Positions 1-55,266 of a DNA stretch of 64,000 nucleotides are shown here, in pieces; position 1 is the stretch's first letter; every line of letters starts with the position of its first letter. The notes beneath the pieces are model-generated. The model was not told the DNA's origin. It did no database searches and saw only the letters and a program-made list of their open reading frames with translations. The translations under genes and the position numbers were made by a program. Origin of the DNA: an uncultured cyanobacterium (lineage in GTDB: Bacteria > Cyanobacteriota > Cyanobacteriia > Cyanobacteriales > CAWUOF01); NCBI GenBank assembly GCA_963744145.1, contig CAVUSO010000001.1:5184001-5248000 (forward strand), read 5' to 3'.

Positions 1-3000
1 ACTAATTAGCTGACCCTGATTAATTAATGGTACACACAATACTGATTTAGGCTGATGCTGTTTAATATAAGGATCGCTAGTAAATTTACCTGTTTGAGTA
101 GCATCATTTAAGACTAAACTTTCTTGAGTACGTGCGACATAATTAACAATGGCTTCCGAAAGGATTTGAGTATTGGTAATCGGAGTCGATCGCCATAGGA
201 TTACTGGTTGAATGATAGAACCTTCGGCTTCGATCATTAATTTGCCTTGATTAGACAAAATCAGACAACCCCGTTGTGCTCCAGCATTTTCGATTAAAAT
301 TTTCATTAAACTAGACAGTAAATTATCTAGCATAATTTCGCCGGAAATAGTCTGATTGGCTTTGATTACTGTCGCAAAATCTAAATCGGAATTGCCTCCA
401 GTTGTTGAAGATTTTCTACCAGTAATAGTTGTCCGCAAATCAGTTTGTTTATTGGCTGATTTATTAGACAAAAACTGTGGATATTTCTGCTCTAAATCCT
501 CTACTTTACGTTTAGCCCCCCAAAGTTGGTAACCATAGTGAGCTTTGAGCATATAAAGTTGAGCAATTTCTTCTTTTCCTTTCCCTAACCAAAACTTAGC
601 CGCTAATTCATTCCCTAAAGCTTCATTCTGAATATATTCATTTTCATGGGCTGAAGCGATCGCGCGATCATATAAATCTAGTGCAGCCATTTCTTGACCA
701 GAAATCCGGGCAATTTCTGCTTCCACCAACAGATATTTATGCAGGAAATTTTCCGGACAACTATCTGCCCAAATTTTCATCTGTTGTTGGTTGGTTTCAA
801 TTTGTTTTTGATAACTAACTTGGTCTGATTCACTAAAGGTTGGATAGAGAGCCAATAAAATTAAAGAAATATATAAATTGTTAACAGCATTAGTAATCAT
901 CCCTTGCACATAAGGTAACATGGTTTGAGCTTCTTGGATACAATCTAAAGCGGTAACATTGTCGCCATACAAATAGAGAACTTGGGCTTTATAGGTTAAG
1001 TAGTTAGCAAGAGCAAAAAAGTTTTGATTAGTTCGACAATCTTCGATATAATCAGCTTCAGTGAGGGAATCACTGGCAAACTCTCTGGATTTGGGACTCA
1101 AGCCACTTAAATTATAAATGGGTAGTTGACAGGCGATTATGCTATGATAGGCTAATAAATTTTTCGTTTTAGCCGTGAATTTTAAATAATCATTAAGAAC
1201 CGCTAATATTTCACTAAAAATTTTACCAGAAACAAAAAAGTTAACCATTTGATGCAGAGCAATATAGCCGGAAAACTGTAACTCTCCTGACTCCAAACCT
1301 GCTTGATAACCTTTGTTATTAATCACCTCAGCTTTTTTCATTGGAATCACCCAATGTTGAACATGGTTAGCGATATTATTAGAGGCTTGCGCTTTCATGG
1401 ATGAGTCATTAAAACGCTCAGAAAGGTCTAAACCTAATTTAGCAAATTCATAGCCTGAGCGATATTCCCGTAAAACTGAACTCAGAATAATTCCATAACT
1501 AGTATAAACTTTAGCAGAAGCAGCAATCGGACCGTATTTAATCGAAATATAAGCCATTTTCGCAGCAATAATTCCATAAAGTTCGGTGTTACTAAAATAA
1601 GCCGCAGGGTCTACACTGACTAACAATTTTACAGCAGCTCTCATTTCCAGATTCGTCATTTCTGGTTGCTTTAGTAGGATGCTAATTTCTCTAGGTTGCC
1701 AAAGTTTCCGCACTTCTGCTAGTTCTTTTTGTAAAGCATTGGTGAAATCTTGATTAGTTAACTCAATCCCCAATAAATTTAAGGCTTGTCGAGCAGCATT
1801 AATAGCTTCTTCATATTTAGACATCATGGTTAACATGATAATTAAAACATTATAAATTTCGGCTTTTTCTAAATTAGTTTTACATTTGTCAATCACCAAA
1901 TAAATCAATTCTTCAGCATAATCAAAGTTACTGTTTAAATATTCAATTTCTGTTCTTTCTTTATGCAGATCCAGGGTCAGTTGATATTCCTCTTGCCAAC
2001 AATCATCACTTAATAAAGATATACCGATCTGCAAATATTCTTGCGCCGCTAAATAAGCATTTGAGTCTTTCGCTTTGCGAGCAGCGATTAAATTAAATTT
2101 GGCTAAGGCTATTTTTTCAGTTTGATCAGTAATTAACTCACGTCCAAGATTAAAATGTTCAACTATATCGAAAATTTTTGCCTCTTGCTCTGTCCCTGGA
2201 GTATTAACTTGTAACAAACGTCCAATTTTCAAGTGTACTGCTTTTTTTTCATTTTCAGCAATTAAAGTATAAGCAGCTTGCTGTACTCGGTCATGCAGAA
2301 ATTTATAATCTTGAATTAATAGGTTTTCATCTAACTCCGATGTTGGCAATATGTATCCAGCCTGAATTGCTGCAAATAGATCGGAAAAAATTATTTCTGG
2401 CGGTTGTTCACAAACAATCGACAGGGTACTTAAGTGAAAAGATGCGCCTATACAAGATGCTAAACGTAAAACCTGCTGTGTAATAGAAGGCAGTTTTTTC
2501 AAGTTGTTGATCATCAATTCTACGACATTATCTGTGATATTTTTTGCCTCAATTTGATCTATATTCCACTGCCAATTATGATGTTGCCAGTCAAAATTTA
2601 TCAGTTTTTCTGCGGCCAGAGTTTTCAGAAATTGATTGACAAAAAACGGGTTCCCTCCCGTTTTCTTCATTACCAGTTCTGCTAAAGATTTTACTGAGTC
2701 TGTGTCTCGATGTAATACATCCGCAATCAATTGGCTAATATTTTCTGGTTGTAAAGGTGCTAAGGTAATAAAATTGATAATTGCTCCCTCTTTACTCAAC
2801 CGATCAATCGTCATCATCAACGGATGAGTTGGGCTGACTTCATTATCTCGATAAGCTCCAATTAAAAACAGATATTGCAGCTCTGTATCTGTCATCATCA
2901 GTTCAATTAATTTGAGAGTAGCGGAGTCAGCCCACTGTAAATCATCGAGAAAAATAATTAAGGGATGCTCTTTTGTGCAGAATACTCTAATGAAATTACC

Positions 3001-9709: not shown

Positions 9710-10384
9710 ATGCAACCAGATAGTGAATTATACTTAGCGGAAACTCAGTCATCAGGTGATGTCAGTGGTGCAGGAACATCATCTCTTACTGCTGAACAAT
9801 ATCAACGAAAAATGCAGCGTCGTAAAGAAGTACAAGTCCAAAGATTAGAAAAAGCGATCCCAGAGAAAGGATTAATCATTGTTCATACGGGGAATGGGAA
9901 AGGGAAAACTACTGCTGCTTTAGGGATGGTAATGCGATCGCTCGGTCATGGTTATCGAGTTGCGATTATTCAATTTATTAAAGGTGCTTGGGAACCAGCA
10001 GAAAAAGCCGTTTTACAACATTGGCAAGATCAGTTAGAATTTCATGCGATGGGAGAAGGTTTTACCTGGGAGACTCAAGATCGCGATCGAGATATTCAAA
10101 AAGCACAGGAAGCATGGGCAAAAGCTTTAACATATATTAGTAATCCTGCATATAAGCTAGTATTGTTAGATGAAGTTAATGTCGCCATGAAACTCGGTTA
10201 TTTACAAGCTGAAGATATTTTAGTAGGATTGGAACAAAAATCACCAAATTCCCATATTATTTTAACAGGTAGAGGAGCGCCACCAGCATTAATTGAACGG
10301 GCAGATTTAGTGACTGAAATGACTTTAATTAAACATCCTTTTCGAGAACAAGGAGTTAAAGCTCAACCTGGGATTGAATATTAA
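9710..10384 (+). CDS. cobO: Cob(I)yrinic acid a,c-diamide adenosyltransferase
   Basis: GNGKGKTTAA, QFIKG, LDE, LTGR, KHPF..G..AQPGIEY. Confidence 0.95.
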   Translation: MQPDSELYLAETQSSGDVSGAGTSSLTAEQYQRKMQRRKEVQVQRLEKAIPEKGLIIVHTGNGKGKTTAALGMVMRSLGHGYRVAIIQFIKGAWEPAEKAVLQHWQDQLEFHAMGEGFTWETQDRDRDIQKAQEAWAKALTYISNPAYKLVLLDEVNVAMKLGYLQAEDILVGLEQKSPNSHIILTGRGAPPALIERADLVTEMTLIKHPFREQGVKAQPGIEY

Positions 10385-10404
10385 TAATTAGCAAGAAGCG
10401 TAAC

Positions 10405-11973
10405 ATGATATCAGGACAAATAAAAAGTCAAATAGATACAATTTGGGATACATTTTGGTCGGGAGGTATCTCTAATCCTCTCGAAGTTATTGAACAGATT
10501 ACTTATCTGCTATTTATCCGTCGTCTGGATGATCTACATACCCTAGAAGAAAAGAAAGCTAATCGACTAAAACGTCCAATCCAAAACTGGATTTTTCCAG
10601 AAGGTGAATTTCCAGAGGGTGAACTATTTGAGGATAAAAAAATTAAAAAACGCCCATATAATGATTTACGTTGGTCAAGATTTAAGCATTTTGAAGCAGC
10701 GGAAATGTTTACAGTAGTTAATGATTATGTTTTTCCTTTTCTGAAAACTTTGGGAGGAGATAAATCGACCTATTCACACCACATGAAGGATGCTCGGTTC
10801 ACAATTCCTACTCCATCCCTATTATCAAAGGTTGTGGATTTACTGGATGCTGTACCGATGGAAGATCGGGATACAAAAGGTGATCTTTATGAATATATGT
10901 TGGGCAAAATTGCCACAGCAGGACAGAATGGACAGTTTCGCACACCGCGTCATATTATTCAGTTGATGGTAGAACTAACTGCACCAAATGAACGGGATAT
11001 TATTTGTGATCCTGCTAGTGGTACTTGTGGTTTTTTAGTAGCTGCTAGTGAATATTTGCGATCGCATCATCCCGAAATTTTACTCGATCCTAAATGGAAA
11101 GAACATTTTCATAAAGAGATGTTTCACGGGTTTGATTTTGATAATACCATGCTGCGAATTGGTAGTATGAATATGTTATTGCATGGTGTGGAAAATCCTG
11201 ATGTGCGTTACAAGGATTCTCTAGCACAGGAGCATTCTGCTGATGAAGAATCTTATACCCTGGTTTTAGCTAATCCTCCTTTTGCTGGGTCGTTAGATTA
11301 TGAGAATACAGCTAAAGATTTACAAGCGATCGTTAAGACTAAAAAAACTGAGTTGTTATTCCTAGCACTATTTTTAAGATTGTTAAAACCGGGGGGACGT
11401 GCTGCGGTAATTGTGCCCGATGGTGTGCTTTTTGGTTCTTCTAAAGCACATAAAGAACTGCGTCGTCTATTGGTAGAGGAGCAAAAGCTTGATGGTGTGA
11501 TTTCTCTTCCTGGTGGTGTATTTAAACCTTATGCAGGTGTTTCTACTGCTATTTTACTATTTACTAAAACTAATTCTGGGGGAACCGATTTTGTTTGGTT
11601 CTACGATGTAAATGCTGATGGGTGGAGTTTAGACGATAAAAGAACACCTTTACTTGCTGATGATAAATTAGGTGCTGTACCTAAGACCGAATTAACAGCA
11701 GAAGAACATCCTAAAAATAATCTACCTGATGTATTAAATCGTTGGCAAGAGAGAAATACTATAGAACGAGAGCGATCGCGTACAGATCAAAGTTTTTCTG
11801 TACCAAAAGCGGATATTGCAGCTCAGGGATATGACCTCAGTTTGAATCGTTATAAGGAAGTAGTCCATGAAGAAGTGGAACATCGCGCTCCTCAAGATAT
11901 CCTTGCTAATTTGGCAAAATTGGAAGCGGAAATTCAGCAGGGGATGAAGGAATTAGAGATGCTACTGAAATAA
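10405..11973 (+). CDS. hsdM: Type I R-M methyltransferase subunit
   Basis: GQFRTPRHII, DPASGTCGF (motif I), NPPF (motif IV). Confidence 0.95.
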   Translation: MISGQIKSQIDTIWDTFWSGGISNPLEVIEQITYLLFIRRLDDLHTLEEKKANRLKRPIQNWIFPEGEFPEGELFEDKKIKKRPYNDLRWSRFKHFEAAEMFTVVNDYVFPFLKTLGGDKSTYSHHMKDARFTIPTPSLLSKVVDLLDAVPMEDRDTKGDLYEYMLGKIATAGQNGQFRTPRHIIQLMVELTAPNERDIICDPASGTCGFLVAASEYLRSHHPEILLDPKWKEHFHKEMFHGFDFDNTMLRIGSMNMLLHGVENPDVRYKDSLAQEHSADEESYTLVLANPPFAGSLDYENTAKDLQAIVKTKKTELLFLALFLRLLKPGGRAAVIVPDGVLFGSSKAHKELRRLLVEEQKLDGVISLPGGVFKPYAGVSTAILLFTKTNSGGTDFVWFYDVNADGWSLDDKRTPLLADDKLGAVPKTELTAEEHPKNNLPDVLNRWQERNTIERERSRTDQSFSVPKADIAAQGYDLSLNRYKEVVHEEVEHRAPQDILANLAKLEAEIQQGMKELEMLLK

Positions 11974-12087
11974 TTTGTGTTTTTAGATGCAAGCAAACTT
12001 TTAGTATGTATAAATCGGAGGTTTTGATATGGTTTTACATGAACTAATGGCTAAAAGTTCTAGAAGATTCTAAAATAAAAAATGATC

Positions 12088-12483
12088 CAGCGGATGACCC
12101 ATTGATGAAGTACAGTAAGATTGTGGGACAGGCATCTTGCCTGTCCGATCAATTTGTCAGTTAAAGTCACTTGTGATTGATCTGTGTTGGTTGGGCGGGT
12201 TTATGATGTTGATCTATTTGTGTCAGAATTAACTGGTGAACCCGCCCCTACAAATCCTGGTTGATTGTGATCATAAATTCATCGACAATACATTTTTATG
12301 ATTTAGTTTAATCTTGAATTTCAGATTTTTTGGTAAATCGTACAAGATGCGAACAGGTTTATCAACTGTAGGGGCGGGTTCACCGATGAATTTGTTACAC
12401 ACAAGTAACTTTAATGAACCCGCCCTGCCCCACAGATCACCTTGATGAACTCACCCGATCTGACATCACAGACAACACTGCTA
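12088..12483. mobile_element. MITE-like REP cluster, CAGCGGAT-end family, copy 1
   Basis: GGGCGGGTT/AACCCGCCCCTAC palindromes; colinear with 19572-19592+21469-22108 and 32510-32686. Confidence 0.7.
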
Positions 12484-12535
12484 TAGTTCATAAATCGGTC
12501 ATACGCTAGATCTAATCTGATACTTTAATAAAATC

Positions 12536-12757
12536 ATGACTAAATCCGAACTCGAACAACAACTCCTTCAGCTTTCACCGAACGATAAACTGTATATTAT
12601 CCAATTCCTGGCACAAAGTCTGACTACACCCAAGACTTCTATAGCGCAACCCATCACACCCTTAGAATTTTTCCGTCAATCTCCTTTAGCTGAATGCGCT
12701 GAAGAATTAGACCTTAACCGCGATCGCAGTCTAGCTCGCGATAATTTCAACCTATGA
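12536..12757 (+). CDS. Small antitoxin-like protein (orphan)
   Basis: 73 aa with LEFFRQSPL..ELDLNRDRS tail, typical of genes upstream of PIN toxins; an overlapping ATGA starts only an 11-codon ORF. Confidence 0.55.
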   Translation: MTKSELEQQLLQLSPNDKLYIIQFLAQSLTTPKTSIAQPITPLEFFRQSPLAECAEELDLNRDRSLARDNFNL

Positions 12758-12811
12758 ATCACATCCTTATTATTTTCATCAATCGATAGTCAAAATATAG
12801 GAGAAAAAGCC

Positions 12812-13381
12812 ATGATAGTTGCAGCCGCTAAAAAGATGACTCTAGAAGACTTCCTTAATTATGACGATGGGACGGATACTTTATATGAATTAGAAAATGG
12901 AGAATTAATTCCGATGCCTTCTGAAAGTAATATTAATCAACGGATCGCTGTATTTCTGTTGATTTATTTTTCTCAATTAGGAATACCATCTTCTCGATTG
13001 CGGATGAAAGTTGAGTTAGCGGTGAATAGTAGATATGTAGGTGTGCGCGTTCCTGATTTAGTGGTATTTTCTGAAGAGTTAGCAATCTCAATGGAGGGAG
13101 CTAGTCGATCGCTAGTTTTAATGGATATGCCCCCACCCTTGTTGGTCGTTGAGGTAGTAAGTCCAAATCAGGAAAATCGGGATTATCGTTATAAGCGATC
13201 GGAGTATGCAGCGCGGGGAATTGCGGAGTATTGGATTGTTGATCCGATCGCTCAAAAGGTGACAGTGTTGGAATGGGTGGAGGGTTTTTATGATGAGATG
13301 GTGTATATGGGGGATAGTGTGATCGCATCACCTGTACTTGGTAGTTTAGATTTAACAGTGGCGCAAGTTTTGATGGGATAA
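12812..13381 (+). CDS. Uma2-family (DUF820) endonuclease
   Basis: YELENGELIPMP, RVPDL, LLVVEVVSP, RDYRYKRSEYAARGIAEYWIVDP. Confidence 0.9.
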   Translation: MIVAAAKKMTLEDFLNYDDGTDTLYELENGELIPMPSESNINQRIAVFLLIYFSQLGIPSSRLRMKVELAVNSRYVGVRVPDLVVFSEELAISMEGASRSLVLMDMPPPLLVVEVVSPNQENRDYRYKRSEYAARGIAEYWIVDPIAQKVTVLEWVEGFYDEMVYMGDSVIASPVLGSLDLTVAQVLMG

Positions 13382-13538
13382 TGGTATAATTTTGCTAAGA
13401 TAATCTCAGCACCCTGATTCATAAACCCACTTTTAAAAACTTGGTAGGTGATGTTAGCCAGGAAATTCCAAGTAGAAACGGTATAGTATCTTTATGAACA
13501 ACTAAACAGAATAACAGATAACATAGCAGGAGATTCAC

Positions 13539-29963: not shown

Positions 29964-31565
29964 TTACACTTCATCCATTGCTAACATCTGAATCAGACGG
30001 GGTGTTCCTGGATCAAACCCAGCAATATCCCAAGATTTTGGATCTTTTGGATCAACTAAGGAGATATTGTAGGGAGCAAGTGCAATATAAATTGCTTTGG
30101 CATGGGGATTGATTTTATGGCGATATTCTGCTAAAGCTTGACTAGGATGTTTCTTTCCTGCCCAACTTTCACAATCAGTCCAAAAGCAAAATAGATCTGC
30201 TTTAAACTTGGTTTTAATTGCCCAATCGTAAGCGACAGATGCGTCAGTTCCACCGAAATTCTGGTTACTGGCTTTGGCGATCGCTTGACTAAAAGAATCC
30301 TGTGCGGTAATCTTTAAATCACGGAAATCAGTAGCAAAACCACGAATGACATAATTTTTTTCTGCTTTCGCAGTTGCTAAAGCCATGACGGTAGCAATTT
30401 CGCAACAAGTTAAGCCAATGGAACTAACAGTATTAAAGGACATGGAACCGGAAATATCAACAGCGTGTAAGAAAGTTTTCCCGGTTGGAGGAAGTACATC
30501 AAAAGCTAGTTCTAAGGCTTTCTCTAAGATATCAATAATCTGCCGAATTGGTTGCCAAGTTTTTTTACTCCGACCTAATTCTCCTCCTGATTGATAGGTT
30601 TTGATAGCTTTCAAGATGTCAATCGGATGAATCCGTCCTTTCTGTAAATGTTCCCGACTATTGAGTAACTTAGCAATACGCTTCAAATTAGACTGATGAT
30701 GAGTAGTTAAAACCTCTAATTGTGTTAATGATCCAAGATTTCGCAGCATCGCACCAATGGGCATTTCATTAAACAGCAATTGCCATGCTTTTTGATCCAT
30801 TTTACCTACAGGTGCAGCCATTTCATGGGTTAATCTTCCTTTCGCGATCGCTTCATGAGTTTTTTCTGGATGACGTTTTAACCATTCATACCACCAAATT
30901 TGTGCTAAGGGTTCAGCTGGAATTTTAGAGGGTAATTTATCCCATCCGTGCATTACCCACTTAAACAATTGATTATGGGTTTCAGTGATAGGTTTCACAT
31001 GAAATAAGCGCAACGCATCACGATGGGAAAAACCTTGACGTTGTTGGTATTTCAACAATTGATAAGCTAATTCTTGCACATTATCACGGGAAAACCAAGC
31101 TTTACCAGCTTCACGTACAATTTTACCAAAACCACGCATGGCTTTAGTGTAACCTAGCCATTCATAGAAATGACTACCAGTTCGTACTACTTGCAGAAAG
31201 ATTTCTCCAAAAGCTTGTTTAGCTTCTTGGGAATTGTCCATTGATAACAACACTAACGCAAATAAAGGGGCACTATTATTAATTGCGCGTCCATCACTAG
31301 CATAGAGAATTTCGGTAGCAACTTGGTTCGGATTAAGAGCGATCGCTTGTTTGAGGATTTCGACAAATTCGATCGTTAACTCATGTTTACCTGCATAATA
31401 GGTATTTTGAGCTGTACCAATTAACAAACAACGACGTAATACATTCCAAATATCAGCTTTAAACATCCAACCACCAGAACGTCCTGGAACCATTTCTGTT
31501 TCTCGACCAGGAATTGGTTGAGTCTGGGGGGTTTGATTTTTTACAAAAAACTTATAATTCATCAT
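29964..31565 (-). CDS. rsr: Ro60/Rsr TROVE-vWA RNA-binding protein
   Basis: KYQQRQGFSHRDALRLFHVKP, AMLRNLG, RIHP, vWA MIDAS DISGSM, GGTD, WTDCE. Confidence 0.92.
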   Translation of the reverse strand: MMNYKFFVKNQTPQTQPIPGRETEMVPGRSGGWMFKADIWNVLRRCLLIGTAQNTYYAGKHELTIEFVEILKQAIALNPNQVATEILYASDGRAINNSAPLFALVLLSMDNSQEAKQAFGEIFLQVVRTGSHFYEWLGYTKAMRGFGKIVREAGKAWFSRDNVQELAYQLLKYQQRQGFSHRDALRLFHVKPITETHNQLFKWVMHGWDKLPSKIPAEPLAQIWWYEWLKRHPEKTHEAIAKGRLTHEMAAPVGKMDQKAWQLLFNEMPIGAMLRNLGSLTQLEVLTTHHQSNLKRIAKLLNSREHLQKGRIHPIDILKAIKTYQSGGELGRSKKTWQPIRQIIDILEKALELAFDVLPPTGKTFLHAVDISGSMSFNTVSSIGLTCCEIATVMALATAKAEKNYVIRGFATDFRDLKITAQDSFSQAIAKASNQNFGGTDASVAYDWAIKTKFKADLFCFWTDCESWAGKKHPSQALAEYRHKINPHAKAIYIALAPYNISLVDPKDPKSWDIAGFDPGTPRLIQMLAMDEV

Positions 31566-31604: not shown

Positions 31605-31732
31605 TGGTGTAGTGGAGCGGGAATTGCACCCGCATCTCGTCGATTAAGGGGGATGTCGTGTTACAGCGATAATCCTCAATCTGCGTCCCTTTCGGGCAAA
31701 AATTGCGCTTTACTATTAAGCTACCCACCACA
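31605..31732 (-). ncRNA. tRNA-like (Y RNA-related) RNA upstream of rsr
   Basis: Minus strand: acceptor GUGGUGGG/UCCACUAC-A-CCA, UA, D-arm GCUU-AAUAGUA-AAGC, about 70-nt structured insert replacing the anticodon arm, T-arm GCGGG-UGCAAUU-CCCGC. Confidence 0.8.
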
Positions 31733-32931: not shown

Positions 32932-35793
32932 GTGGTACGTCCCAGTTATGGTCCTGAAGCGAAGAAACGCTCTAAACAGTTATTGGCTGTGTTGCTTGAC
33001 TATGCCAATGATGAGTTAAACTGTGATGAATCTACTCTAGATGCTTTACGTCCCCAGATTCAAGTATATTGGCAAACTGAACAGAGATTAATTGTTCGCA
33101 CTAAGATCCGTTTTTTAGAGACTCTGACTAAATTAGGTACAGATTCTCTACTGAGTGGAGAACAGATTAAGGAAGCACTACGACGGTTTGAGGATTTTTT
33201 AGAGATTCTGGAAGATCATCGTCCCAACCGTGGTGGGTCAGAAATTTGGCACTTTACACTTAATTTATGGTATAAGCGCAGTCATCCTATTGCTAACTTA
33301 GAACGATTTGAGCAGGAGTGGGAGCAACGTCGTCCCCAAAAATCTAAACAGGTAACAGGAGATCAAAGTGAGCAAGTACAGAATAATTTTTGGTGGGAAC
33401 TCTGTCGGGAGAGTTTAGAATTACAGGATTATCAACGGTTAACTACTAATGTGCTGACTGTTCCTGATGGAGTTGCGTTTGATTTGCATGAAGTTTATAT
33501 ACCATTGAAGTTGGTAGAAAGAAAACAGCAAGATCGGCGATCGGTAGATATTTCTGCGGAGCAAGGATCACAGTTTTATGAACCGGAAGAACTAGAAACA
33601 GCTCTAAGTTTAACGATCGCAGAGTTTTGTCAGCGATTTTTCCAATCTGAACTTAAACAACGGATTGCGATCGTCGGGGAACCTGGTTCAGGTAAAACTA
33701 CTTTGCTCCAAAAAATTGCTACTTGGTTACTTGAACATCAAGTTTTACCAATCTGGATTTCTCTTGCTGATCTGCAAGGATCTACTTTAGAACATTATCT
33801 ATTAAATGACTGGCTGAAACAAGCTACTCACAAAATCCGTGTTTCGGAAGAACTTCAGGAAGGTTTAGCTCAACAATTCCATCTAGGTAAGGTTTGGTTA
33901 TTACTCGATGCGGTTGATGAAATGGCTGATGATGCTAGTATGGCACTTAGTATGATTGCGCGTCAATTGCGAGGATGGGTTGGAGATGGGAATGTGGTGC
34001 TTACTTGTCGGTTGAATGTGTGGGATCATGGTAAAAATGCTCTTCATAGTTTTACTACCTATCGAAATCTTAGTTTTAGTTATGGTGATACTCGCGATCG
34101 CGATCAAGTTGGTGCATTTATTCAGCGTTGGTTTTCGTCTCGTCCTGAATTTGCCGATCGCTTACATCTGGAGCTAAATAAAATTGAACGAAAGCGGATT
34201 AAAGATACTGTAAAAAATCCGCTCCGATTAGCATTATTATGTCGGACTTGGTCTTTAGCTCAAGGGAATTTACCTAATACTAAAGCTACTCTCTATCAGC
34301 AATTTGTGGAAACCATTTATGAATGGAAACAGGATCGCTTTCCCACTACTCCTGCTCAACGACAGCAATTAAATCAGGTTTTGGGAAAACTAGCTCTTTT
34401 TGCTTTAGAACAACCGGAAATTAAATTTAGATTAAGTTATTCTTTTTTACAACAAGCATTTGCTGAGTCTCTTGAATTAATTCCCTTAGCATTACAATTA
34501 GGTTGGTTAAATCAGGTAGGTATTGCTGCTAATTCTGGTGAAAAAGTGTATGCTTTTTATCACCCAACCTTTCAGGAATATTTTGCAGCTCAAACAATTA
34601 CAGATTGGCATTTTTTCTTTGATCCTAAGCATAATTATCCCATTTTTAGTCAACCTTGGCAAGAGGTAATTTTCCTCTGGTTGGGACGAAGTGATGTTTC
34701 CGTAATCGATAAAGAAGCTTTTTTACAAGCATTAACAGAGTTTGATGATCAATGTGGTGGTTTTTATGCTGTTCGAGCTTATTTTATTGCAGCAGTAGGA
34801 TTAGCGGAATTTCCCCATTATAGCAAAGCAGAAATAATTTTATCACAATTAATTGATTGGCGTTTTGCTGTACATAGATCGTCAAAGTTTGGTGCAATCC
34901 CACTTTCAGAAGATGCAAGAATTGCTTTACTTAAGACTGATCGAAGTTTAGCAATTTTAGGTTTAGAAAAATTCATTAGTTCCGTTTCCCATCCTTTTAT
35001 AATTTGGAACGCAGCTTATACACTTGGTCGAGCGTTAGATCCAGGGAATTTAGTCGCGATCGCTGCTTTAATTCGGTTACTGGATATCATTCAATCGGAA
35101 CCTTTGCGTTTACAGATTAGTGAACATTTGGGGAAAGTTGATCCTGGTAATGCGATCGCAATTGCTACTCTTGTGAGTATAATTGAATCAGCTTCTTCCT
35201 TATCTATCTGTCGGAAAGCAGCTTATAGTCTGGGAAAAATCTGTCCAGAACATCCCTTAGCGATCGCAACTTTGGAACGTTTGGTTGCTACTACTGATCT
35301 TAGTTTCAAAAGACAAGTCATCGAAAATTTACTGACATTAGATCCAGGAAATGTAATCGCGATCGCAGTTCGAGAAACCATTAAAAATACCCGACCGCAA
35401 ACCAGTCAGAAACGACCAAAGAAATATGCAGATACAATTAGTATAGCACAAACCATCAAAATATTAGAAAACAAATTAGATACTGTCAAAGATCCAGATA
35501 ATCTTAGACGAATTGCTTACCGTCTTGGTAATTTACAACCTGGACATTCTCAAGCAATCGAAATTTTAATTAGACTACTAACATCAGCAAATTCGTCAGG
35601 ATTCCATAAACAAGTGAGTGAAAATCTCAAAGAGATCATCACCGATGAGCAATTGAGTGAAATCGTTAGTAAACTCAAACCAGGAGTAAATCAAGATGGA
35701 ATAGCTTCCAGCGATCGAGAATCTGATAAAATGCTATGGTATTGCGCTCAAAGAATGACTTATGATCGTTTTTATCAAGCATGGAATGGATAA
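32932..35793 (+). CDS. NACHT (STAND) NTPase with N-terminal putative wHTH-like domain and C-terminal HEAT repeats
   Basis: GEPGSGKT, LLLDAVDE, LTCR, NPLRLALL, FYHPTFQEYFAA, repeated AAY.LG..DPGN..AI. Confidence 0.9.
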   Translation: MVRPSYGPEAKKRSKQLLAVLLDYANDELNCDESTLDALRPQIQVYWQTEQRLIVRTKIRFLETLTKLGTDSLLSGEQIKEALRRFEDFLEILEDHRPNRGGSEIWHFTLNLWYKRSHPIANLERFEQEWEQRRPQKSKQVTGDQSEQVQNNFWWELCRESLELQDYQRLTTNVLTVPDGVAFDLHEVYIPLKLVERKQQDRRSVDISAEQGSQFYEPEELETALSLTIAEFCQRFFQSELKQRIAIVGEPGSGKTTLLQKIATWLLEHQVLPIWISLADLQGSTLEHYLLNDWLKQATHKIRVSEELQEGLAQQFHLGKVWLLLDAVDEMADDASMALSMIARQLRGWVGDGNVVLTCRLNVWDHGKNALHSFTTYRNLSFSYGDTRDRDQVGAFIQRWFSSRPEFADRLHLELNKIERKRIKDTVKNPLRLALLCRTWSLAQGNLPNTKATLYQQFVETIYEWKQDRFPTTPAQRQQLNQVLGKLALFALEQPEIKFRLSYSFLQQAFAESLELIPLALQLGWLNQVGIAANSGEKVYAFYHPTFQEYFAAQTITDWHFFFDPKHNYPIFSQPWQEVIFLWLGRSDVSVIDKEAFLQALTEFDDQCGGFYAVRAYFIAAVGLAEFPHYSKAEIILSQLIDWRFAVHRSSKFGAIPLSEDARIALLKTDRSLAILGLEKFISSVSHPFIIWNAAYTLGRALDPGNLVAIAALIRLLDIIQSEPLRLQISEHLGKVDPGNAIAIATLVSIIESASSLSICRKAAYSLGKICPEHPLAIATLERLVATTDLSFKRQVIENLLTLDPGNVIAIAVRETIKNTRPQTSQKRPKKYADTISIAQTIKILENKLDTVKDPDNLRRIAYRLGNLQPGHSQAIEILIRLLTSANSSGFHKQVSENLKEIITDEQLSEIVSKLKPGVNQDGIASSDRESDKMLWYCAQRMTYDRFYQAWNG

Positions 35794-37484: not shown

Positions 37485-40481
37485 TCATAAATATCTTTTC
37501 ACTTCCGTTAAAAACGCTAATAAATTAAAACTTTTCTTTCCTCTCATCTGGTTTAATAAAGAAAGTTTCCCAACTGAGTCATCTCCAATTAAGTTTTCAT
37601 AGGGATCAAGTTTGAGACTAATATCCCTAGCTTTTTCATAACGAGAAAAATGAAATAGAGTCAAATACTGCAAGATGTCGTTTTTTAGGGTTGTATTAGA
37701 AATAAGTCCCATCCGAATATCTTCATCATCTAAAATACCCTGATAAATTTCTAGAAGTGTTGCATAAGAAATTACACCTCGATAGTTTCGTTCTTCATCT
37801 TTACCGACTTTCAATCCATTAAACAAATTAAAAAAGACTACGGATTTTTTACTGCGATCGGCAACTAAATTCGTTAATTCTAAAGTATCTTGGATATATA
37901 ACGATGTAGTTTTCAATTTTTCTAGCATTACTACATAATACTTATCAAAAAAGATCGGATAGATTTTGATATCTTCATAACTTGCTTTTAAAGTGCGGAT
38001 CACATTGGGGGACATGAAAAATAAACCATCGTCATCTTCCGTTTTGGTCATGTGTAAGGTGCTAGTGTAGGGAGCTTTAGCAATATATAAAAAATGTCTA
38101 TATCCTAGTCGATACAGTTGACTGATTTTATCCCTAACTACGGTAGGATCTCTAAACATATCCTCATGATTATAGTTACCTGAAAAAGTTCCAAGTAACT
38201 GAACTCTTACCCCATCATCAATTCGTTTTAATCCCACAATTTCCCCAATTAAATTAGATTTCTTATAATTGCTTCCCCATCTAGCATCACTTGCTCGACT
38301 CGAAACAATAATAATTGCTAATTGATTTAAGTCTGGACAACTTGGAGGATGATTAAAGTGAAATTTTTTCGGTAATATAGAGTAAAGAGAACTGAGGACA
38401 TTAGGAATTTTGTAGTTTAAATTACCGCTAATATCAACTCCCTGAGCATTAGCACGATGTTCTTCATTAAGTAAATGGGATAATACCTTAGAAAAAGATA
38501 CCATAAAGGTTTCGATCGCGGTACTATTTTGTTTATTATTTAAGTGCAGACGTAGGATCGGAATAAATAACCGATTTTTGGTATAACTCAGGATCACTTG
38601 CACAGATAAATAAGCAAGCAAAGCAAAGGTAAATTGATAAACAAAGGTCTTTTGTTCCTTCAGATTGTTGCGCTCTAAACTATAAGGGAATAAAATTAAT
38701 TTCCGCTGCAAATTGTCAGAAATTTTTTGACACTGGGGTTCTTTGGGAACAAAAACAATGGGTAAGGTATTAATCCCGGTCAGATCATAATTCATCGAGA
38801 AACTTGGTTGAATATCAGTAGTAAAATAAGGAATATCACTAATAGTAATATTTGCAGTTAGGGTACAGAGAGAACTGGTAGAAGTATGGGTTTGATCCGA
38901 TAGATGAGCATCTCCGATCGCGATATATTTAAGCACATCCTTAGCATTTTCTCTGAGAATAGGTTTAAAAAAAGTATCGCGATCGCAAATTTTCTGAAAG
39001 TCCTGTTCTAAAATTCCTTTCTTAATCGAAATATGGAGAGGATAATTTTGGGTCTTCAAAGGAGTTTTCCGACTCAGAACATTTCTCAATAAATGTTTTA
39101 ATTGCTCAATCTTAGCACCAATTTGATAAGATTCCATCCCCTGTTTAATTCCAGCAAAAATTCTTTGCTTTGCTCCATCATCATTTCCTTGGAGCAGGGG
39201 AAGTACCCTAGTTTCAAAATTGGGAATTGGATTATACTCTAAATCAGACTCAGGGGTATAACCTGGTGTATTTGGGTCAACAGTAGCAAAGATAAAATAA
39301 TATAAAAAAGCTAACCTTAATACCTTTTTTGCAAAACCTTCTTTGGTCAATGGATCATTTAGTTCTGCTTGATGTGTTTGACTCTTGGGATCAATAATAT
39401 TCAGATAATACTCAAACGGAGTTTTTCCTCCTCGGGACTGGACGGGATTATTGAATTTGAGTTTCAACCCAAAAATAAACTGTAAATATTCCTGAGTTTC
39501 TGAGGTACTTTCTCCCAAATATCCTTCCACGATCGGGACAATCGGTAACATTTCAAATGCTTCACTTCGAGCAAACCAGTCTCGATAGTTAAGGGTGATT
39601 CCTCCATAATTTACTTGATAATACCCATCCCCTTTTTCTAGATCACTAATATAATCGTTAATTAATTTAAGTCGTCTAATTAAATCTTGCAAATAAAATC
39701 CACCGGGACTATTAGTGGAACTAATTTTAATATTGGTTTGCAAAAACTCTAAATAATTGATCTGAGCTTGTTTTTTCAATTTACCTAAAGTTTCGCTATC
39801 GACAATTCGTTTTAAAATGTAAAAATCCGACTGGGGATTTTTCTCTAATTCCTCTAGAATATATCCCAACTCTTCGCGATCGCTAGGATCAGCAAAGTGG
39901 AGATTAATATAATTGGTTAATCCCGTCTGTAATTGTTGATTAAAAGTCTGAGTATGATCAACGGTAATCGTTAATTTGTGTAATTTGAGCACTTCCTGAC
40001 GATCGGACTGATGAGAAAAACTTAATTGCTGCTTTTGTAAATTTTCATAAGTAGGAAACGGATAAGTAAAATCTAATTTTTGGCTCTTCCCTTGAAAAGA
40101 CTGTAACTCCGTAATTAAACTAGCAATAAAATCCTTCACTACATCCGGTTCAGCTTGGGGATTAATCGTGGACTCTAATAATTGTTGACAAAGTTTTTTA
40201 AGTTGTGTTACTATCACCGGAAAACGTTCAGCTAAACTTGAAGTAAAATTAATTGTTGCTACAATAGTGCTAGGTGTAGATGAACCCAGGGGATTATTTA
40301 TGGGTAAATCTGCTACTTGTGCTGCAATACTGTCCAGATCAATCTGCAATTTTTGTCGATCGCTAAATAATCTAAATGGATTGACAAGTTGGGGATTCTG
40401 TAAAACTCCCACCAGTTGATCCAGCAAATCACTATAGTCCACTAAAACTAAATCATTATCATTCCAGTTTAATCTATTCAT
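37485..40481 (-). CDS. Large hypothetical protein, possible divergent MID-PIWI C-terminus
   Basis: 998-aa intact ORF; the product call is inference from motif spacing (see findings). Confidence 0.6.
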   Translation of the reverse strand: MNRLNWNDNDLVLVDYSDLLDQLVGVLQNPQLVNPFRLFSDRQKLQIDLDSIAAQVADLPINNPLGSSTPSTIVATINFTSSLAERFPVIVTQLKKLCQQLLESTINPQAEPDVVKDFIASLITELQSFQGKSQKLDFTYPFPTYENLQKQQLSFSHQSDRQEVLKLHKLTITVDHTQTFNQQLQTGLTNYINLHFADPSDREELGYILEELEKNPQSDFYILKRIVDSETLGKLKKQAQINYLEFLQTNIKISSTNSPGGFYLQDLIRRLKLINDYISDLEKGDGYYQVNYGGITLNYRDWFARSEAFEMLPIVPIVEGYLGESTSETQEYLQFIFGLKLKFNNPVQSRGGKTPFEYYLNIIDPKSQTHQAELNDPLTKEGFAKKVLRLAFLYYFIFATVDPNTPGYTPESDLEYNPIPNFETRVLPLLQGNDDGAKQRIFAGIKQGMESYQIGAKIEQLKHLLRNVLSRKTPLKTQNYPLHISIKKGILEQDFQKICDRDTFFKPILRENAKDVLKYIAIGDAHLSDQTHTSTSSLCTLTANITISDIPYFTTDIQPSFSMNYDLTGINTLPIVFVPKEPQCQKISDNLQRKLILFPYSLERNNLKEQKTFVYQFTFALLAYLSVQVILSYTKNRLFIPILRLHLNNKQNSTAIETFMVSFSKVLSHLLNEEHRANAQGVDISGNLNYKIPNVLSSLYSILPKKFHFNHPPSCPDLNQLAIIIVSSRASDARWGSNYKKSNLIGEIVGLKRIDDGVRVQLLGTFSGNYNHEDMFRDPTVVRDKISQLYRLGYRHFLYIAKAPYTSTLHMTKTEDDDGLFFMSPNVIRTLKASYEDIKIYPIFFDKYYVVMLEKLKTTSLYIQDTLELTNLVADRSKKSVVFFNLFNGLKVGKDEERNYRGVISYATLLEIYQGILDDEDIRMGLISNTTLKNDILQYLTLFHFSRYEKARDISLKLDPYENLIGDDSVGKLSLLNQMRGKKSFNLLAFLTEVKRYL

Positions 40482-43660: not shown

Positions 43661-43674
43661 CAGGCTTGTATATC

Positions 43675-45609
43675 ATGTCTTCTATATCCTACTCGTCAAT
43701 AATTTGGAAGTACCTACCAGAAACTTTCCGTCATCCTACCTTATTAGCCACTTTGGCATCAGTAGGTGTTCATGGACTTTTATGGGGTGTTTTACCGGTC
43801 TTACCTTTGAGTCCTAGCAATTCCGAACTCGACTCTAGACGTACTGTCAAACTGGTGGAGTTAACCTCAGCCGAACAAAATCTTCTACCACAATTTAATC
43901 TGCCTCAATCTACTTCGATTTTTAATCAAAAAGATTTATTATCTACTTTACCACCAGGACCACCGGCGATCGATGTCCCATCTTTACCTGGACTCCAGCC
44001 GGATGTTCAGTTTCAACCCTGGCCCAATATGCAGCCAGAATCTCCTGCTCCACAACTTCCAGCACCTTCGAGCCAAGTACCAAATAATTCTAGTCAACCC
44101 CAATTTCAGGTAGGAATTAATCCGGGAGAATCATCTTTTACACCAAATAACTTAGTGTCTAAGATGATCACCGGATTAAATCAACAGCAAAATCAAGAGC
44201 AAATAAATCCAAACCAGTTCAACCAAAATGACTCCCCCCCTATACCTCTCTGGCAACCACCTATTTTTCTTCAACAGCAAACTATTCCTGAACCAGTAGG
44301 AAATAATCTGGATGAGCAAACAAAGAAACAAAATATAGTTGTAGCGAAAGGAGCTGGTGGAATAGCTCAGGAAGCATTCCGGATCGGAGAACAAGCTCGT
44401 AATGCTGCTGAATTTCAAAAGAGTATCCAAAATGCCCCCCGCTTTCCCTATCGTGGACCAGAACCAGGTATATTTCCAAATCGAAGCGATCGACCTACGG
44501 GAAATGGGCAAATGGCTACCCAATATCAACCAAGTATTGATGCGACCAAAAATTATGGTAATTGGTTAAATGATGTCCAAAATACACACCGCGATCTAAA
44601 AACTGCCAATATTATTCGTGTGATCGCTCCCTATGCTGCCCAACCAGGAAGTCAAAAAATTGAGAGCAAAGCTTTAATTGGAATAGTTATCCAACCTAAT
44701 GGTGAAATAGATCAGTCTAAGTCCAAACTATTAGTAGGAACTAATATTGATTTTCTGGACAAAATCGCTTTACAAGCAGCTTTACAACAAGCGTTAAATA
44801 GCTTTAATCGCCTATCAAATAAAGATAAGCTCACTTCTAGAGCTTATCAAATAGAGGTTTCCTTACAACCAGGCCAATTTTCAAGTAATCAAGGAAATTC
44901 TCCTGGTGTTCAGAAAAATGCTGATCGACAGTCCCAACCTGGGTCAACAACTGGGAGCAATAATTCAACTCAGACTCAACCTGGGTCAACAACTGGGAGC
45001 AATAATTCAGCTCAGACTCAACCTGGGTCAACAACTGGGAGCAATAATTCAGCTCAGACTCAACCTGGGTCAACAACTGGGAGCAATAATTCAGCCCAGA
45101 CTCAACCTGGGTCAACAACTGGGAGCAATAATTCAACTCAGACTCAACCTGGGTCAACAACTGGGAGCAATAATTCAGCCCAGACTCAACCTGGGTCAAC
45201 AACTGGGGGCACCAGTACCACTCAGACTCAACCTGGGTCAACAACTGGGGGCAATAATTCAGCTCAGACTCAACCTGGGTCAACAACTGGGGGCAATAAT
45301 TCAGCTCAGACTCAACCTGGGTCAACAACTGGGAGCAATAATTCAGCTCAGACTCAACCTGGATCAACAACTGGGGGCAATAATTCAGCTCAGACTCAAC
45401 CTGGATCAACAACTGGGAGCAATAATTCAGCTCAGACTCAACCTGGATCAACAACTGGGGGCAATAATTCAGCTCAGACTCAAACACCTTCGACTACACT
45501 CGAGCATAATTCAAAGGGAAATTCTCCGACTAATCAAAGTAATGATGCTCATCATCAGGAAATTCATCCTGACAATCAGGGACATTCAAATATCCCCAAG
45601 GGGAACTAA
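43675..45609 (+). CDS. TonB-like membrane-anchored Pro/Gln-rich protein with repeat tail
   Basis: ASVGVHG TM motif, Pro-rich linker, TonB-C-like IVIQPNGEI..GT..FLDKIA domain. Confidence 0.6.
   Translation: MSSISYSSIIWKYLPETFRHPTLLATLASVGVHGLLWGVLPVLPLSPSNSELDSRRTVKLVELTSAEQNLLPQFNLPQSTSIFNQKDLLSTLPPGPPAIDVPSLPGLQPDVQFQPWPNMQPESPAPQLPAPSSQVPNNSSQPQFQVGINPGESSFTPNNLVSKMITGLNQQQNQEQINPNQFNQNDSPPIPLWQPPIFLQQQTIPEPVGNNLDEQTKKQNIVVAKGAGGIAQEAFRIGEQARNAAEFQKSIQNAPRFPYRGPEPGIFPNRSDRPTGNGQMATQYQPSIDATKNYGNWLNDVQNTHRDLKTANIIRVIAPYAAQPGSQKIESKALIGIVIQPNGEIDQSKSKLLVGTNIDFLDKIALQAALQQALNSFNRLSNKDKLTSRAYQIEVSLQPGQFSSNQGNSPGVQKNADRQSQPGSTTGSNNSTQTQPGSTTGSNNSAQTQPGSTTGSNNSAQTQPGSTTGSNNSAQTQPGSTTGSNNSTQTQPGSTTGSNNSAQTQPGSTTGGTSTTQTQPGSTTGGNNSAQTQPGSTTGGNNSAQTQPGSTTGSNNSAQTQPGSTTGGNNSAQTQPGSTTGSNNSAQTQPGSTTGGNNSAQTQTPSTTLEHNSKGNSPTNQSNDAHHQEIHPDNQGHSNIPKGN
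44929..45483 (+). repeat. 42-bp coding tandem repeat, 13 copies (QTQPGSTTGSNNSA)
   Basis: Head-to-tail CAGACTCAACCTGGGTCAACAACTGGGAGCAATAATTCAGCT units without spacers. Confidence 0.95.
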
Positions 45610-54976: not shown

Positions 54977-55215
54977 TCGATGCAATTATTTCTAGTTCCT
55001 GTAATATGGTGCGGGTCCGAAAAATCAATACGCATCCAGCATGACAAAAAAACTCTCATTCAATTTCTGGGTGACTTGTCCTCGACCTAACCTCCAGGTA
55101 AAAGCAGGTTGATCTTCGGTGCTATCTGTGACTGTTGGGTCCCTAGCTGCTCTTCACTGCTCACGAATAGAATTTCTTTTCCGAAATGAAGGCGATCGCT
55201 TCTGATGTATCTAAA

Positions 55216-55266
55216 AGTAGATGTACCCTGATTTCCCTAACCCCCACGGTTAGGGTATTTTTTTTT
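55216..55266 (+). ncRNA. NsiR1-like small RNA, copy 2
   Basis: AGTAGATGTACCCTGAT, CCCTAACC/GGTTAGGG hairpin, T-run; TCCGAA 38 bp upstream of the TAG. Confidence 0.55.

Follow-up and report, generated by a model that had tools for sequence, protein, structure and literature searches.

What kind of protein is encoded by a large gene that no domain library recognises, and with what partner, if any, would it act? The gene in question lies on the minus strand at positions 37485 to 40481 of a 64,000-nucleotide stretch (the window) of the genome of an uncultured cyanobacterium (contig CAVUSO010000001.1, positions 5,184,001 to 5,248,000), where a first-pass annotation had placed a 998-residue open reading frame (ORF); the ORF is found exactly there. 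That annotation, made from the letters alone, had regarded the product, P0001, as an orphan, as a highly divergent Argonaute-like protein with a catalytically inactive C-terminus, and as a guide-binding sensor that would need a separate effector. The analysis presented here arrives at a related answer. P0001 is, judging from its structural model, a member of a family of long Argonaute-fold proteins restricted, within the present sampling, to one cyanobacterial order, and the genes of this family are coupled to a gene for a large superfamily 2 (SF2) helicase. We put a probability of roughly 55% on the reading that the pair consists of a guide-binding, non-cleaving Argonaute sensor, long and family-specific, and a dedicated SF2 helicase effector acting on foreign DNA.

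The label of orphan had to be given up. A word-indexed search found 500 homologs at E ≤ 1e-3 among the 7999 candidates scored, and an exhaustive search for relatives of P0001 yielded 264 clusters at 50% identity, with full-length members down to about 25% identity. The 120 homologs listed are 53-62% identical to the query over 99-100% of its length; those with a source name are all cyanobacterial, coming from Microcoleus, Moorena, Tolypothrix, Anabaena, Aphanizomenon and Scytonema among others, and nearly always carry the label 'hypothetical protein'. A profile search of its own genome finds P0001 as a single copy. In an alignment of 50 diverse family members including P0001 (A1), 42 columns are conserved to at least 90% among the other 49 sequences, and because P0001 keeps the consensus residue in 42 of these 42, its gene is taken to be intact and constrained. 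A scan for promoters and terminators around the gene returned signals at the level of shuffled sequence. A literature search, with subscription journals and bioRxiv supplements outside its scope, found no description of the family.

No sequence method used detects an Argonaute identity in this family. Searches of Pfam, PADLOC and NCBIfam with P0001 at E ≤ 10 assigned no family, a sequence search of the PDB gave just chance-level ribosomal matches (E 0.18 or worse), the A1 profile matched no PDB chain at E ≤ 10, and the 49 aligned homologs matched no Piwi, PAZ, pPIWI_RE or other PIWI-related Pfam model at E ≤ 1. Canonical prokaryotic Argonautes (pAgos) score above the cut-off of the Pfam Piwi model (PF02171) in 46 of 151 genomes of the order, and a six-frame search of P0001's own genome with this model returned nothing. 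Sixteen canonical cyanobacterial pAgos, taken from the Piwi-profile matches in the same order, were aligned for comparison (A4); hhalign of A1 against A4 gave a probability of 0.3, and the C-terminal 439 residues of A1 gave no usable alignment with A4 in either local or global mode.

What sequence comparison misses is visible in the predicted fold. An AlphaFold2 model of P0001 computed with A1 has a mean predicted local distance difference test (pLDDT) score of 89.8, with 694 residues at pLDDT ≥ 90, and a predicted template modelling (pTM) score of 0.89. Searched against the PDB with Foldseek, it gives 138 matches at E ≤ 1e-3 with probability 1.00, and each match listed at ranks 1-50 (E 3e-6 to 9e-5) is an Argonaute or PIWI protein; TtdAgo, TtAgo, AaAgo, RsAgo, Siwi, human Ago2-4, AfAgo and SPARTA are among them. 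When the Foldseek candidates were realigned with VIA-align, for which best Z scores of 7-8 are common in models without a true match, AaAgo reached Z 11.2 (434 aligned residues, root mean square deviation (rmsd) 5.7) and TtAgo Z 10.5. These alignments run from end to end, model residues 150..996 pairing with TtAgo 3..676 and 163..993 with AaAgo 3..697; AaAgo, TtAgo, hAgo1/2 and RsAgo all align over their full length to the model from about residue 150 to about 996, with just 320-460 residues aligned in the long-Argonaute alignments and an rmsd of 4.5-7. Proteins or fragments of the MID-PIWI type fall on the C-terminal part, AfPiwi, the SPARTA Argonaute and QDE-2 MID-PIWI aligning to model residues 551-996 at Z 8.2-9.2. 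A search independent of Foldseek, against 48,161 representative chains, places Argonaute or PIWI-type proteins at ranks 1-23, the CKM entry 7kpv_D included, save for one uninformative title (8xih_A, Z 7.4, described just as 'protein-DNA complex'); RNase H-like fragments, Pelota among them, follow at Z 6.6 and below.

Since the top ranks of two aligners are almost entirely Argonaute or PIWI proteins and the match is collinear across domains, the Argonaute fold is accepted, and the model resembles a full-length long Argonaute. The arrangement of a MID domain followed by an RNase H fold, which the first-pass annotation had proposed for the last part of the protein, is recovered by fold prediction, Foldseek, VIA-align and the Foldseek-independent search alike, and the segments it had named correspond to secondary-structure elements of the AlphaFold2 model. 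Its divergent Argonaute thus stands as to fold; no sequence relatedness with DdmE or any known pAgo was found (PADLOC, PDB, hhalign). The roughly 550 N-terminal residues, which it had left as unrecognised, align from about 150 to 590 with the N-lobe of long Argonautes, so that the description holds only for the additional residues from 1 to about 150. The layout of the gene, in coordinates of the window, is as follows.

37485..40481, minus strand: whole gene of P0001, the 998-residue protein with the predicted Argonaute fold, from the ORF list and translation, stop codon included.
40032..40481, minus strand: residues 1-150, N-terminal extension peculiar to the family, ahead of the point (about model residue 150) where long Argonautes begin to align.
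38700..40031, minus strand: residues ~151-594, N-lobe, which the VIA-align ranges place opposite N-L1-PAZ-L2 of long Argonautes.
38346..38699, minus strand: residues ~595-712, Rossmann segment resembling MID, lying within the part of the model (551-996) to which short pAgos and AfPiwi align.
37488..38345, minus strand: residues 713-998, PIWI-like RNase H-fold segment, from the strand order of the AlphaFold2 model.

The N-terminal extension is without a counterpart in canonical Argonautes, and its first ~20 residues form a conserved motif (N2, L11, Y16). Within the N-lobe the model has an all-helical stretch (helices 177-278) roughly at the expected place of PAZ, which it may replace. The MID-like segment comprises a strand (638-646), a helix (655-671, KVLSHLL), a second strand (676-683, ANAQGVD) and a second helix (691-699, YKIPNVLSSLY). 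In the PIWI-like part, three strands at 720-734 (LAIIIVSSR...), 740-754 (LIGEIVGL) and 757-771 (VRVQLLGTF) are followed by a helix at 780-791, strands at 796-802 (HFLYIAK) and 839-852 (IYPIFFDK), and a helix at 931-946 (KNDILQYLTLFHF).

This layout allows the catalytic positions to be located. In A4 the canonical columns are G500-x-D502 on strand 1, E537, R570-D571-G572 where strand 4 ends, and D697. Strands 1 and 4 of the P0001 family, as assigned from the model, are 720-734 and 796-802, and the positions that look like the DEDX aspartate sites by motif are S727/S728 and A801/K802, as the first-pass annotation had read them. That reading holds for the family: in A1 none of the 50 sequences has an aspartate or glutamate at any column from 720 to 729, and at each column from 797 to 810 at most one of 50 does. 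Because the strand-1 and strand-4 columns are without acidic residues, the canonical DEDX site is absent at any register, and P0001 is probably a non-cutting Argonaute. Acidic residues are conserved elsewhere in the PIWI part, namely D732 (48 of 50), E747 (43), D784 (42), D865 (46) and E949 (44), together with D846 (35 of 50, plus eight with E) and D967 (35 of 50, plus nine with E), and H944 and K957 are invariant.

The MID part carries a motif that resembles a 5'-end pocket. In the family it reads K665-x3-H669-x10-Q680-G681-x24-K705, the five named residues being found in 38, 41, 50, 49 and 44 of 50 sequences, with R in place of K705 in four of 50; R644, H646, N694, S698 and Y700 are further conserved residues of this part. 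The spacing of canonical pAgos in A4, Y437-x3-K441-x10-Q452-x27-K480, resembles that of the family motif and is identical up to the glutamine, which supports, at the level of spacing only, a putative 5'-end pocket in the MID segment.

A candidate partner for such a protein is found next door in nearly all of the related loci analysed. From 80 related loci that were fetched, the 68 with at least 13 kb of sequence were analysed for their neighbourhood, and in 64 of them a helicase of about 1200 residues is encoded directly downstream of the P0001 homolog on the same strand, in keeping with the separate effector that had been predicted; the helicase does not follow in L057, where the contig ends, and in L066, L089 and L103. 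The junctions are tight, with a 4-base overlap in 16 of 65 and a distance of at most 45 bases in 35 of 65. Beyond these two genes none is conserved throughout the 68 loci, the recurrent flanks besides the helicase being lineage-specific housekeeping genes. Both profiles were also run on the same 301 genomes of the phylum, of which 50 have an Argonaute-like match, 52 a helicase match and 48 both; the genomes with only the Argonaute (G228, G295) or only the helicase (G162, G164, G135, G155) all have weak or fragmentary matches. A near-full-length Argonaute-like match is present in 36 genomes; 32 of them have the helicase within 1.3 kb on the same strand, while in G296 it is 7.5 kb away and in G214 and G244 the two genes are on different contigs. 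The genes also decay jointly, both being full of stops in G071 and broken in G208, and adjacent remnants in G284. The family's genomic coupling to the helicase is thus an observed feature of its distribution, which is itself patchy (13 of 14 sampled genomes in family f3, 17 of 35 in f6 and 4 of 18 in f7, with almost none outside the one order).

The same coupling is seen in two further arrangements. A diverged sister pair, with Argonaute-like frames of 1060-1169 residues and helicase frames of 1273-1341, was adjacent in every case observed (G236:C33:16242-22854, G212:C11, G280:C26, G086:C1, G065:C329, G146:C97, G029:C1, G047:C1 and Nostoc plasmid pNPM2, L135 8857-16324), and in G065 and G212 it occurs alongside the main pair in the same genome. 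What the sister helicase has in common with the main family is the helicase core and ~55 residues of C-terminal tail; no shared helicase N-terminal domain was detectable. In a second arrangement, found in L058 (9983-19685), L048, L054, L061, L062, L063 and L070, Microcoleus included, an Argonaute-helicase-Argonaute run lies on one strand. The two Microcoleus Argonaute copies are 46% identical, their best-conserved blocks being residues 1-50 (0.58 vs 0.46 overall), 301-350 and 901-998, and P0001 is closer to the upstream copy (59%) than to the downstream one (46%).

In the helicase a P-loop lies at about residue 430 and the Pfam Helicase_C match at about 750-860; the mean column identity of the protein across 32 sequences is 61%, with GNPGIGKTT as Walker A and DEITG as Walker B. 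Its model (pLDDT 72.9) matches SF2 helicases over residues ~374-924. The top Foldseek matches are RNA helicases (Brr2, HrpA, Prp22, DHX37), Hachiman HamB and ZorD being further fold matches beside Brr2 and HrpA, and VIA-align ranks WRN first (Z 13.9), then INO80 and FANCM, with RecG and Mfd also matched. The flanking parts resemble nothing detected: a Pfam search at E ≤ 10 with the N-terminal (1-390/410) and C-terminal (~345 residues) parts of six helicases gave noise only, PADLOC returned no DdmD or DdmE match and no assignment for the ~370-residue N-terminal or ~300-residue C-terminal parts, the helicase alignment profile found nothing better than E 0.06 in the PDB, and nothing usable came from the ESM Atlas for the N-terminal 370 residues. 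Invariant D177, D194 and K229 in the N-terminal domain are just a hint of a nuclease. A complex prediction of the Argonaute-like residues 1-590 with helicase residues 1-400 (A1, A2), run without controls, scored 0.00, which speaks neither for nor against binding.

In the genome of the window the two genes have come apart. No partner adjoins the P0001 gene there, as the first-pass annotation had stated, its flanks being a convergent matrixin-like ORF and a divergent ORF of 444 residues. The helicase gene is nonetheless present once and intact, encoding 1224 residues at G000:C1:6087846-6091469 on the plus strand, 863 kb from the Argonaute-like match at 5221488-5224481 on the minus strand. The two genes stand side by side in G303, the only relative from the same family that was searched, which makes the split a peculiarity of this lineage; the nearest relative of both genes among the 20 relatives searched is one and the same genome, G310 (59% for the Argonaute-like protein, 63% for the helicase), which fits a pair that was inherited together and then separated. 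The adjacent helicase of G303 (G303:C82:4181-7828) has one in-frame TAA, which might reflect early decay or else an error of sequencing, the assembly being fragmented. Around the separated helicase (L113, G000:C1:6078000-6097900, helicase at 9811-13485) lie genes for RmlD-like, HI0933-like, C5 DNA methylase, HipA-like, HIRAN and Uma2 proteins; with its C5 cytosine DNA methylase, HipA-like kinase, HIRAN-domain protein and Uma2-family endonuclease, this neighbourhood is more defence-like than that of the Argonaute-like gene. The P0001 gene has a guanine-plus-cytosine (GC) content of 34.0% against 38.9% for the window; a recent foreign origin, which the low value might suggest, is ruled out by a third-codon-position GC content (GC3) of 27%, like that of the neighbours, and by two HIP1 sites.

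Among known systems, the best structural matches of P0001 are long pAgos (AaAgo, TtAgo, RsAgo), with which it is collinear from the N domain to PIWI; canonical cyanobacterial long-A pAgos differ in having D502, E537, D571 and D697, for which the P0001 family has no counterpart on strands 1 and 4. Short pAgo systems (SPARTA, SPARDA, SPARHA, SIR2-APAZ/Ago) resemble it in that an inactive MID-PIWI protein senses pairing and activates a separate effector, and their chains match model residues 546-997 at Z 7.0-9.2; they are, however, without an N-lobe and pair with APAZ-effector fusions, whereas P0001 has an N-lobe and pairs with a helicase. A large PIWI-fold protein with a helicase also recalls the PIWI-RE proteins, which Burroughs, Iyer and Aravind reportedly described in 2013 as large bacterial PIWI-fold proteins encoded with a helicase and proposed to act against foreign DNA. 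Their operons are said to hold three genes, including those for a DinG-type helicase and a restriction-endonuclease-fold protein, and the proteins are said to have Pfam models of their own. P0001 (at E ≤ 10) and its 49 homologs (at E ≤ 1), in contrast, match no PIWI-related Pfam model, and their loci have no conserved third gene.

The closest functional parallels are two systems in which inactive Argonaute-like proteins, DdmE and ApsB, are described as working with a helicase against plasmids (ApsAB, PMC11096173). DdmE of Vibrio cholerae is a DEDX-less 'long-C' inactive pAgo that uses 5'-phosphorylated DNA guides and recruits to plasmid DNA the SF2 helicase DdmD, which has a PD-(D/E)XK nuclease; the DdmDE authors report the deposits 9EZX and 9EZY. 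The P0001 family shares with DdmDE the two-gene set of an Argonaute-fold protein without DEDX and an SF2 helicase of ~1200 residues. It differs in that no sequence similarity was found (no DdmD or DdmE by PADLOC, and no PDB chain with either profile at the thresholds used), in that no nuclease domain is recognised in its helicase, in the length of the Argonaute-like protein (~1000 residues, with the extra N-terminal part of ~150), and in its cyanobacterial hosts; among the matches listed, about 50 per fold search, none is titled DdmD or DdmE for either the Argonaute-like or the helicase model. ApsB of E. coli ST38 was, according to PMC11096173, likewise missed by sequence methods and recognised by structure, its partner ApsA being a helicase-nuclease, and its MID motif Y-x3-K...QG...K is required for antiplasmid activity; the 'QG' recurs in the family's K-x3-H-x10-QG...K. 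ApsB has ~740-790 residues and the gene order is apsA then apsB, neither of which is found in the P0001 family. In Supplementary Data 7 and 8 of the same paper, the ApsAB-like entries from cyanobacteria have a helicase of 1301-1317 residues, with Walker A near residue 45, upstream of an ApsB-like protein of 768-788 residues, whereas in the P0001 family the Argonaute-like gene (~1000 residues) comes first and the helicase, with Walker A at ~430, second (64 of 68 loci). Gene order and size thus set the cyanobacterial ApsAB-like and DdmDE-like supplementary entries apart from the P0001 family (PMC11096173), and four accessions of the family and of the paralog family were not found in the supplements of that paper, file 5 being outside the scope of the comparison.

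By analogy with these systems, P0001 would bind a short 5'-phosphorylated nucleic-acid guide in its modified MID pocket (K665, H669, Q680-G681, K705). The loaded protein would then recognise complementary nucleic acid without cutting it, since the canonical DEDX site is absent, and would hand the target to, or activate by physical contact, the dedicated SF2 helicase of ~1200 residues, which is normally encoded by the next gene in the operon. Like DdmDE and ApsAB, the pair would most likely interfere with incoming DNA, for instance plasmids or mobile elements of other kinds. Several observations weigh against this proposal. No sequence-level link ties P0001 to any Argonaute (Pfam, NCBIfam, PADLOC, PDB, hhalign), and the correspondence of its DEDX positions rests on strand order and that of the MID motif on spacing, neither on alignment or superposition. 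The conserved acidic residues of the PIWI part, several in number, mean that a remodelled active site may be present. The helicase shows no nuclease domain (Pfam fragments, PADLOC, PDB profile), and its SF2 core matches RNA as well as DNA helicases, so that the target may be RNA. A tblastn search of 50,697 phage records found no match to the P0001 family, most contexts of the pair are of the housekeeping kind, and the host-like GC3 and HIP1 sites of the P0001 gene fit long vertical residence and a cellular role as well. A bolder version of the proposal, which we offer tentatively, sees the family as a further deep long-Argonaute clade, beyond the reach of every sequence profile and long resident in filamentous cyanobacteria, that serves as the targeting subunit of a nuclease-less SF2 motor; such a motor might evict, unwind or stall foreign replicons without cutting them, or have a chromosomal function. 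The partnership would in that case be specific enough to outlast the 863-kb separation, to sustain the Argonaute-helicase-Argonaute arrangement of Microcoleus and to tolerate a second, diverged pair in the same cell.

In a different role, the pair would take part in DNA transactions of the cell itself, for example by resolving or decatenating chromosome copies, by acting on intermediates of replication or recombination, or by DNA repair in filamentous cyanobacteria that are polyploid. The main argument is synteny: about 30 of the 68 loci, from Nostocales, have fur, purS and purQ (clusters 2, 4 and 3) upstream of the pair, a stable placement, and in Microcoleus it lies between YCII-like and peroxiredoxin genes. 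The pair is also present in nearly all of the sampled f3 genomes, both genes have stayed intact in the present genome though unlinked, with a host-like composition, and TtAgo, SeAgo and LrAgo are reported to function in cell division or replication. Patchiness elsewhere (f6, f7 and, over the phylum, 50 of 301 genomes) and the pseudogenes of both partners in G071, G208 and G284 count against a cellular role. So does mobility, for the pair is carried on six cyanobacterial plasmids predicted to be conjugative; on plasmid C of Trichormus variabilis ATCC 29413, a 'hypothetical protein' and a 'helicase-related protein' with a 4-base overlap stand beside an integrase and a transposase, and the diverged pair on pNPM2 is near a recombinase. 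Paralogous pairs also coexist in one genome (G065, G212). All of these traits are more typical of accessory conflict systems, and a cellular role seems unlikely to us, though it is the most probable of the rivals. A system directed at RNA, with RNA guides or targets and a helicase that remodels or helps to degrade transcripts of mobile elements or host mRNAs, would suit the RNA helicases at the top of the Foldseek matches and the lack of any recognised nuclease or DNA-specific domain in the helicase. The top VIA-align rows, however, are DNA enzymes (WRN, INO80, FANCM, RecG, Mfd), and because both kinds of enzyme match, the core fold does not discriminate DNA from RNA; as the characterised systems of an inactive Argonaute with a helicase target DNA, an RNA-directed system is rather improbable.

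The remaining alternatives concern the Argonaute-like protein itself. Eukaryotic Med13 uses a PIWI-like fold without a known guide function, and P0001 might similarly be a guide-less scaffold, a structural or regulatory subunit of the helicase. The yeast CKM chain 7kpv_D matches the model about as well as many Argonautes do (Z 8.8), and where canonical pAgos have Y and K in the MID pocket, P0001 has K665 and H669. The MID pocket of canonical Argonautes receives the C-terminal carboxylate, whereas in this family the C-terminal tail extends 0-37 residues beyond the end of P0001. An invariant Q680, with nearly invariant G681, K705, N694, S698 and Y700 at canonical spacing, nonetheless points to a pocket kept under selection, and we regard a purely structural subunit as decidedly improbable. 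It seems hardly credible that P0001 is unrelated to Argonautes and resembles them only through a flaw of the predicted model or through an alpha/beta arrangement that many proteins have: the complete lack of sequence support and the frequency with which unmatched models reach Z 7-8 in VIA-align would allow it, but the model is confident (694 residues at pLDDT ≥ 90), ~850 residues in several domains match in collinear order, and the top ranks of two aligners are almost all Argonaute or PIWI proteins, with unrelated folds only at Z 6.6 and below.

The window holds further features around the P0001 gene. A STAND nucleoside triphosphatase of 953 residues at 32932-35793 (plus strand), with an N-terminal EAD4, a NACHT domain and a C-terminal NCC-H motif, is of a type known from conflict systems and lies 1.7 kb from the Argonaute-like gene. 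Directly upstream of a Ro60/TROVE-vWA gene (29964-31565, minus strand), a 122-nucleotide element at 31609-31730 on the same strand exceeds the threshold of the Rfam transfer RNA (tRNA) model by a small margin (33.8 bits, E 0.003). In bacteria, Y-RNA-like RNAs that include a tRNA-like module adjoin rsr, and the element beside this Ro60 ortholog may be such a Y-RNA-like RNA. Within the ORF at 43666-45609 (plus strand), a 42-bp unit is repeated 13.1 times with 95% match (44935-45483) and encodes 14-residue repeats rich in Gln, Thr, Ser, Gly and Asn; the 647-residue protein is without a Pfam family. At 55215-55264 (plus strand), Rfam NsiR1 (nitrogen stress-induced RNA 1) is matched with 39.3 bits against a gathering score of 39.

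For the biology of prokaryotic Argonautes, the finding bears on how their range has been measured. Censuses of Argonautes rest on sequence profiles, and because these profiles miss the P0001 family, which is present in about one sixth of the sampled genomes of the phylum (50 of 301) and in most of those sampled from some families, the known range of prokaryotic Argonautes is incomplete. An obligate helicase partner would make the pair a third Argonaute-guided helicase system, unrelated in sequence to DdmDE and ApsAB, and would allow the repeated origin of such systems to be tested. The genome of the window is in this respect a natural experiment, both genes being intact and, unusually, unlinked. 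For filamentous cyanobacteria as hosts, the pair may explain barriers to plasmid transfer and to genetic manipulation.

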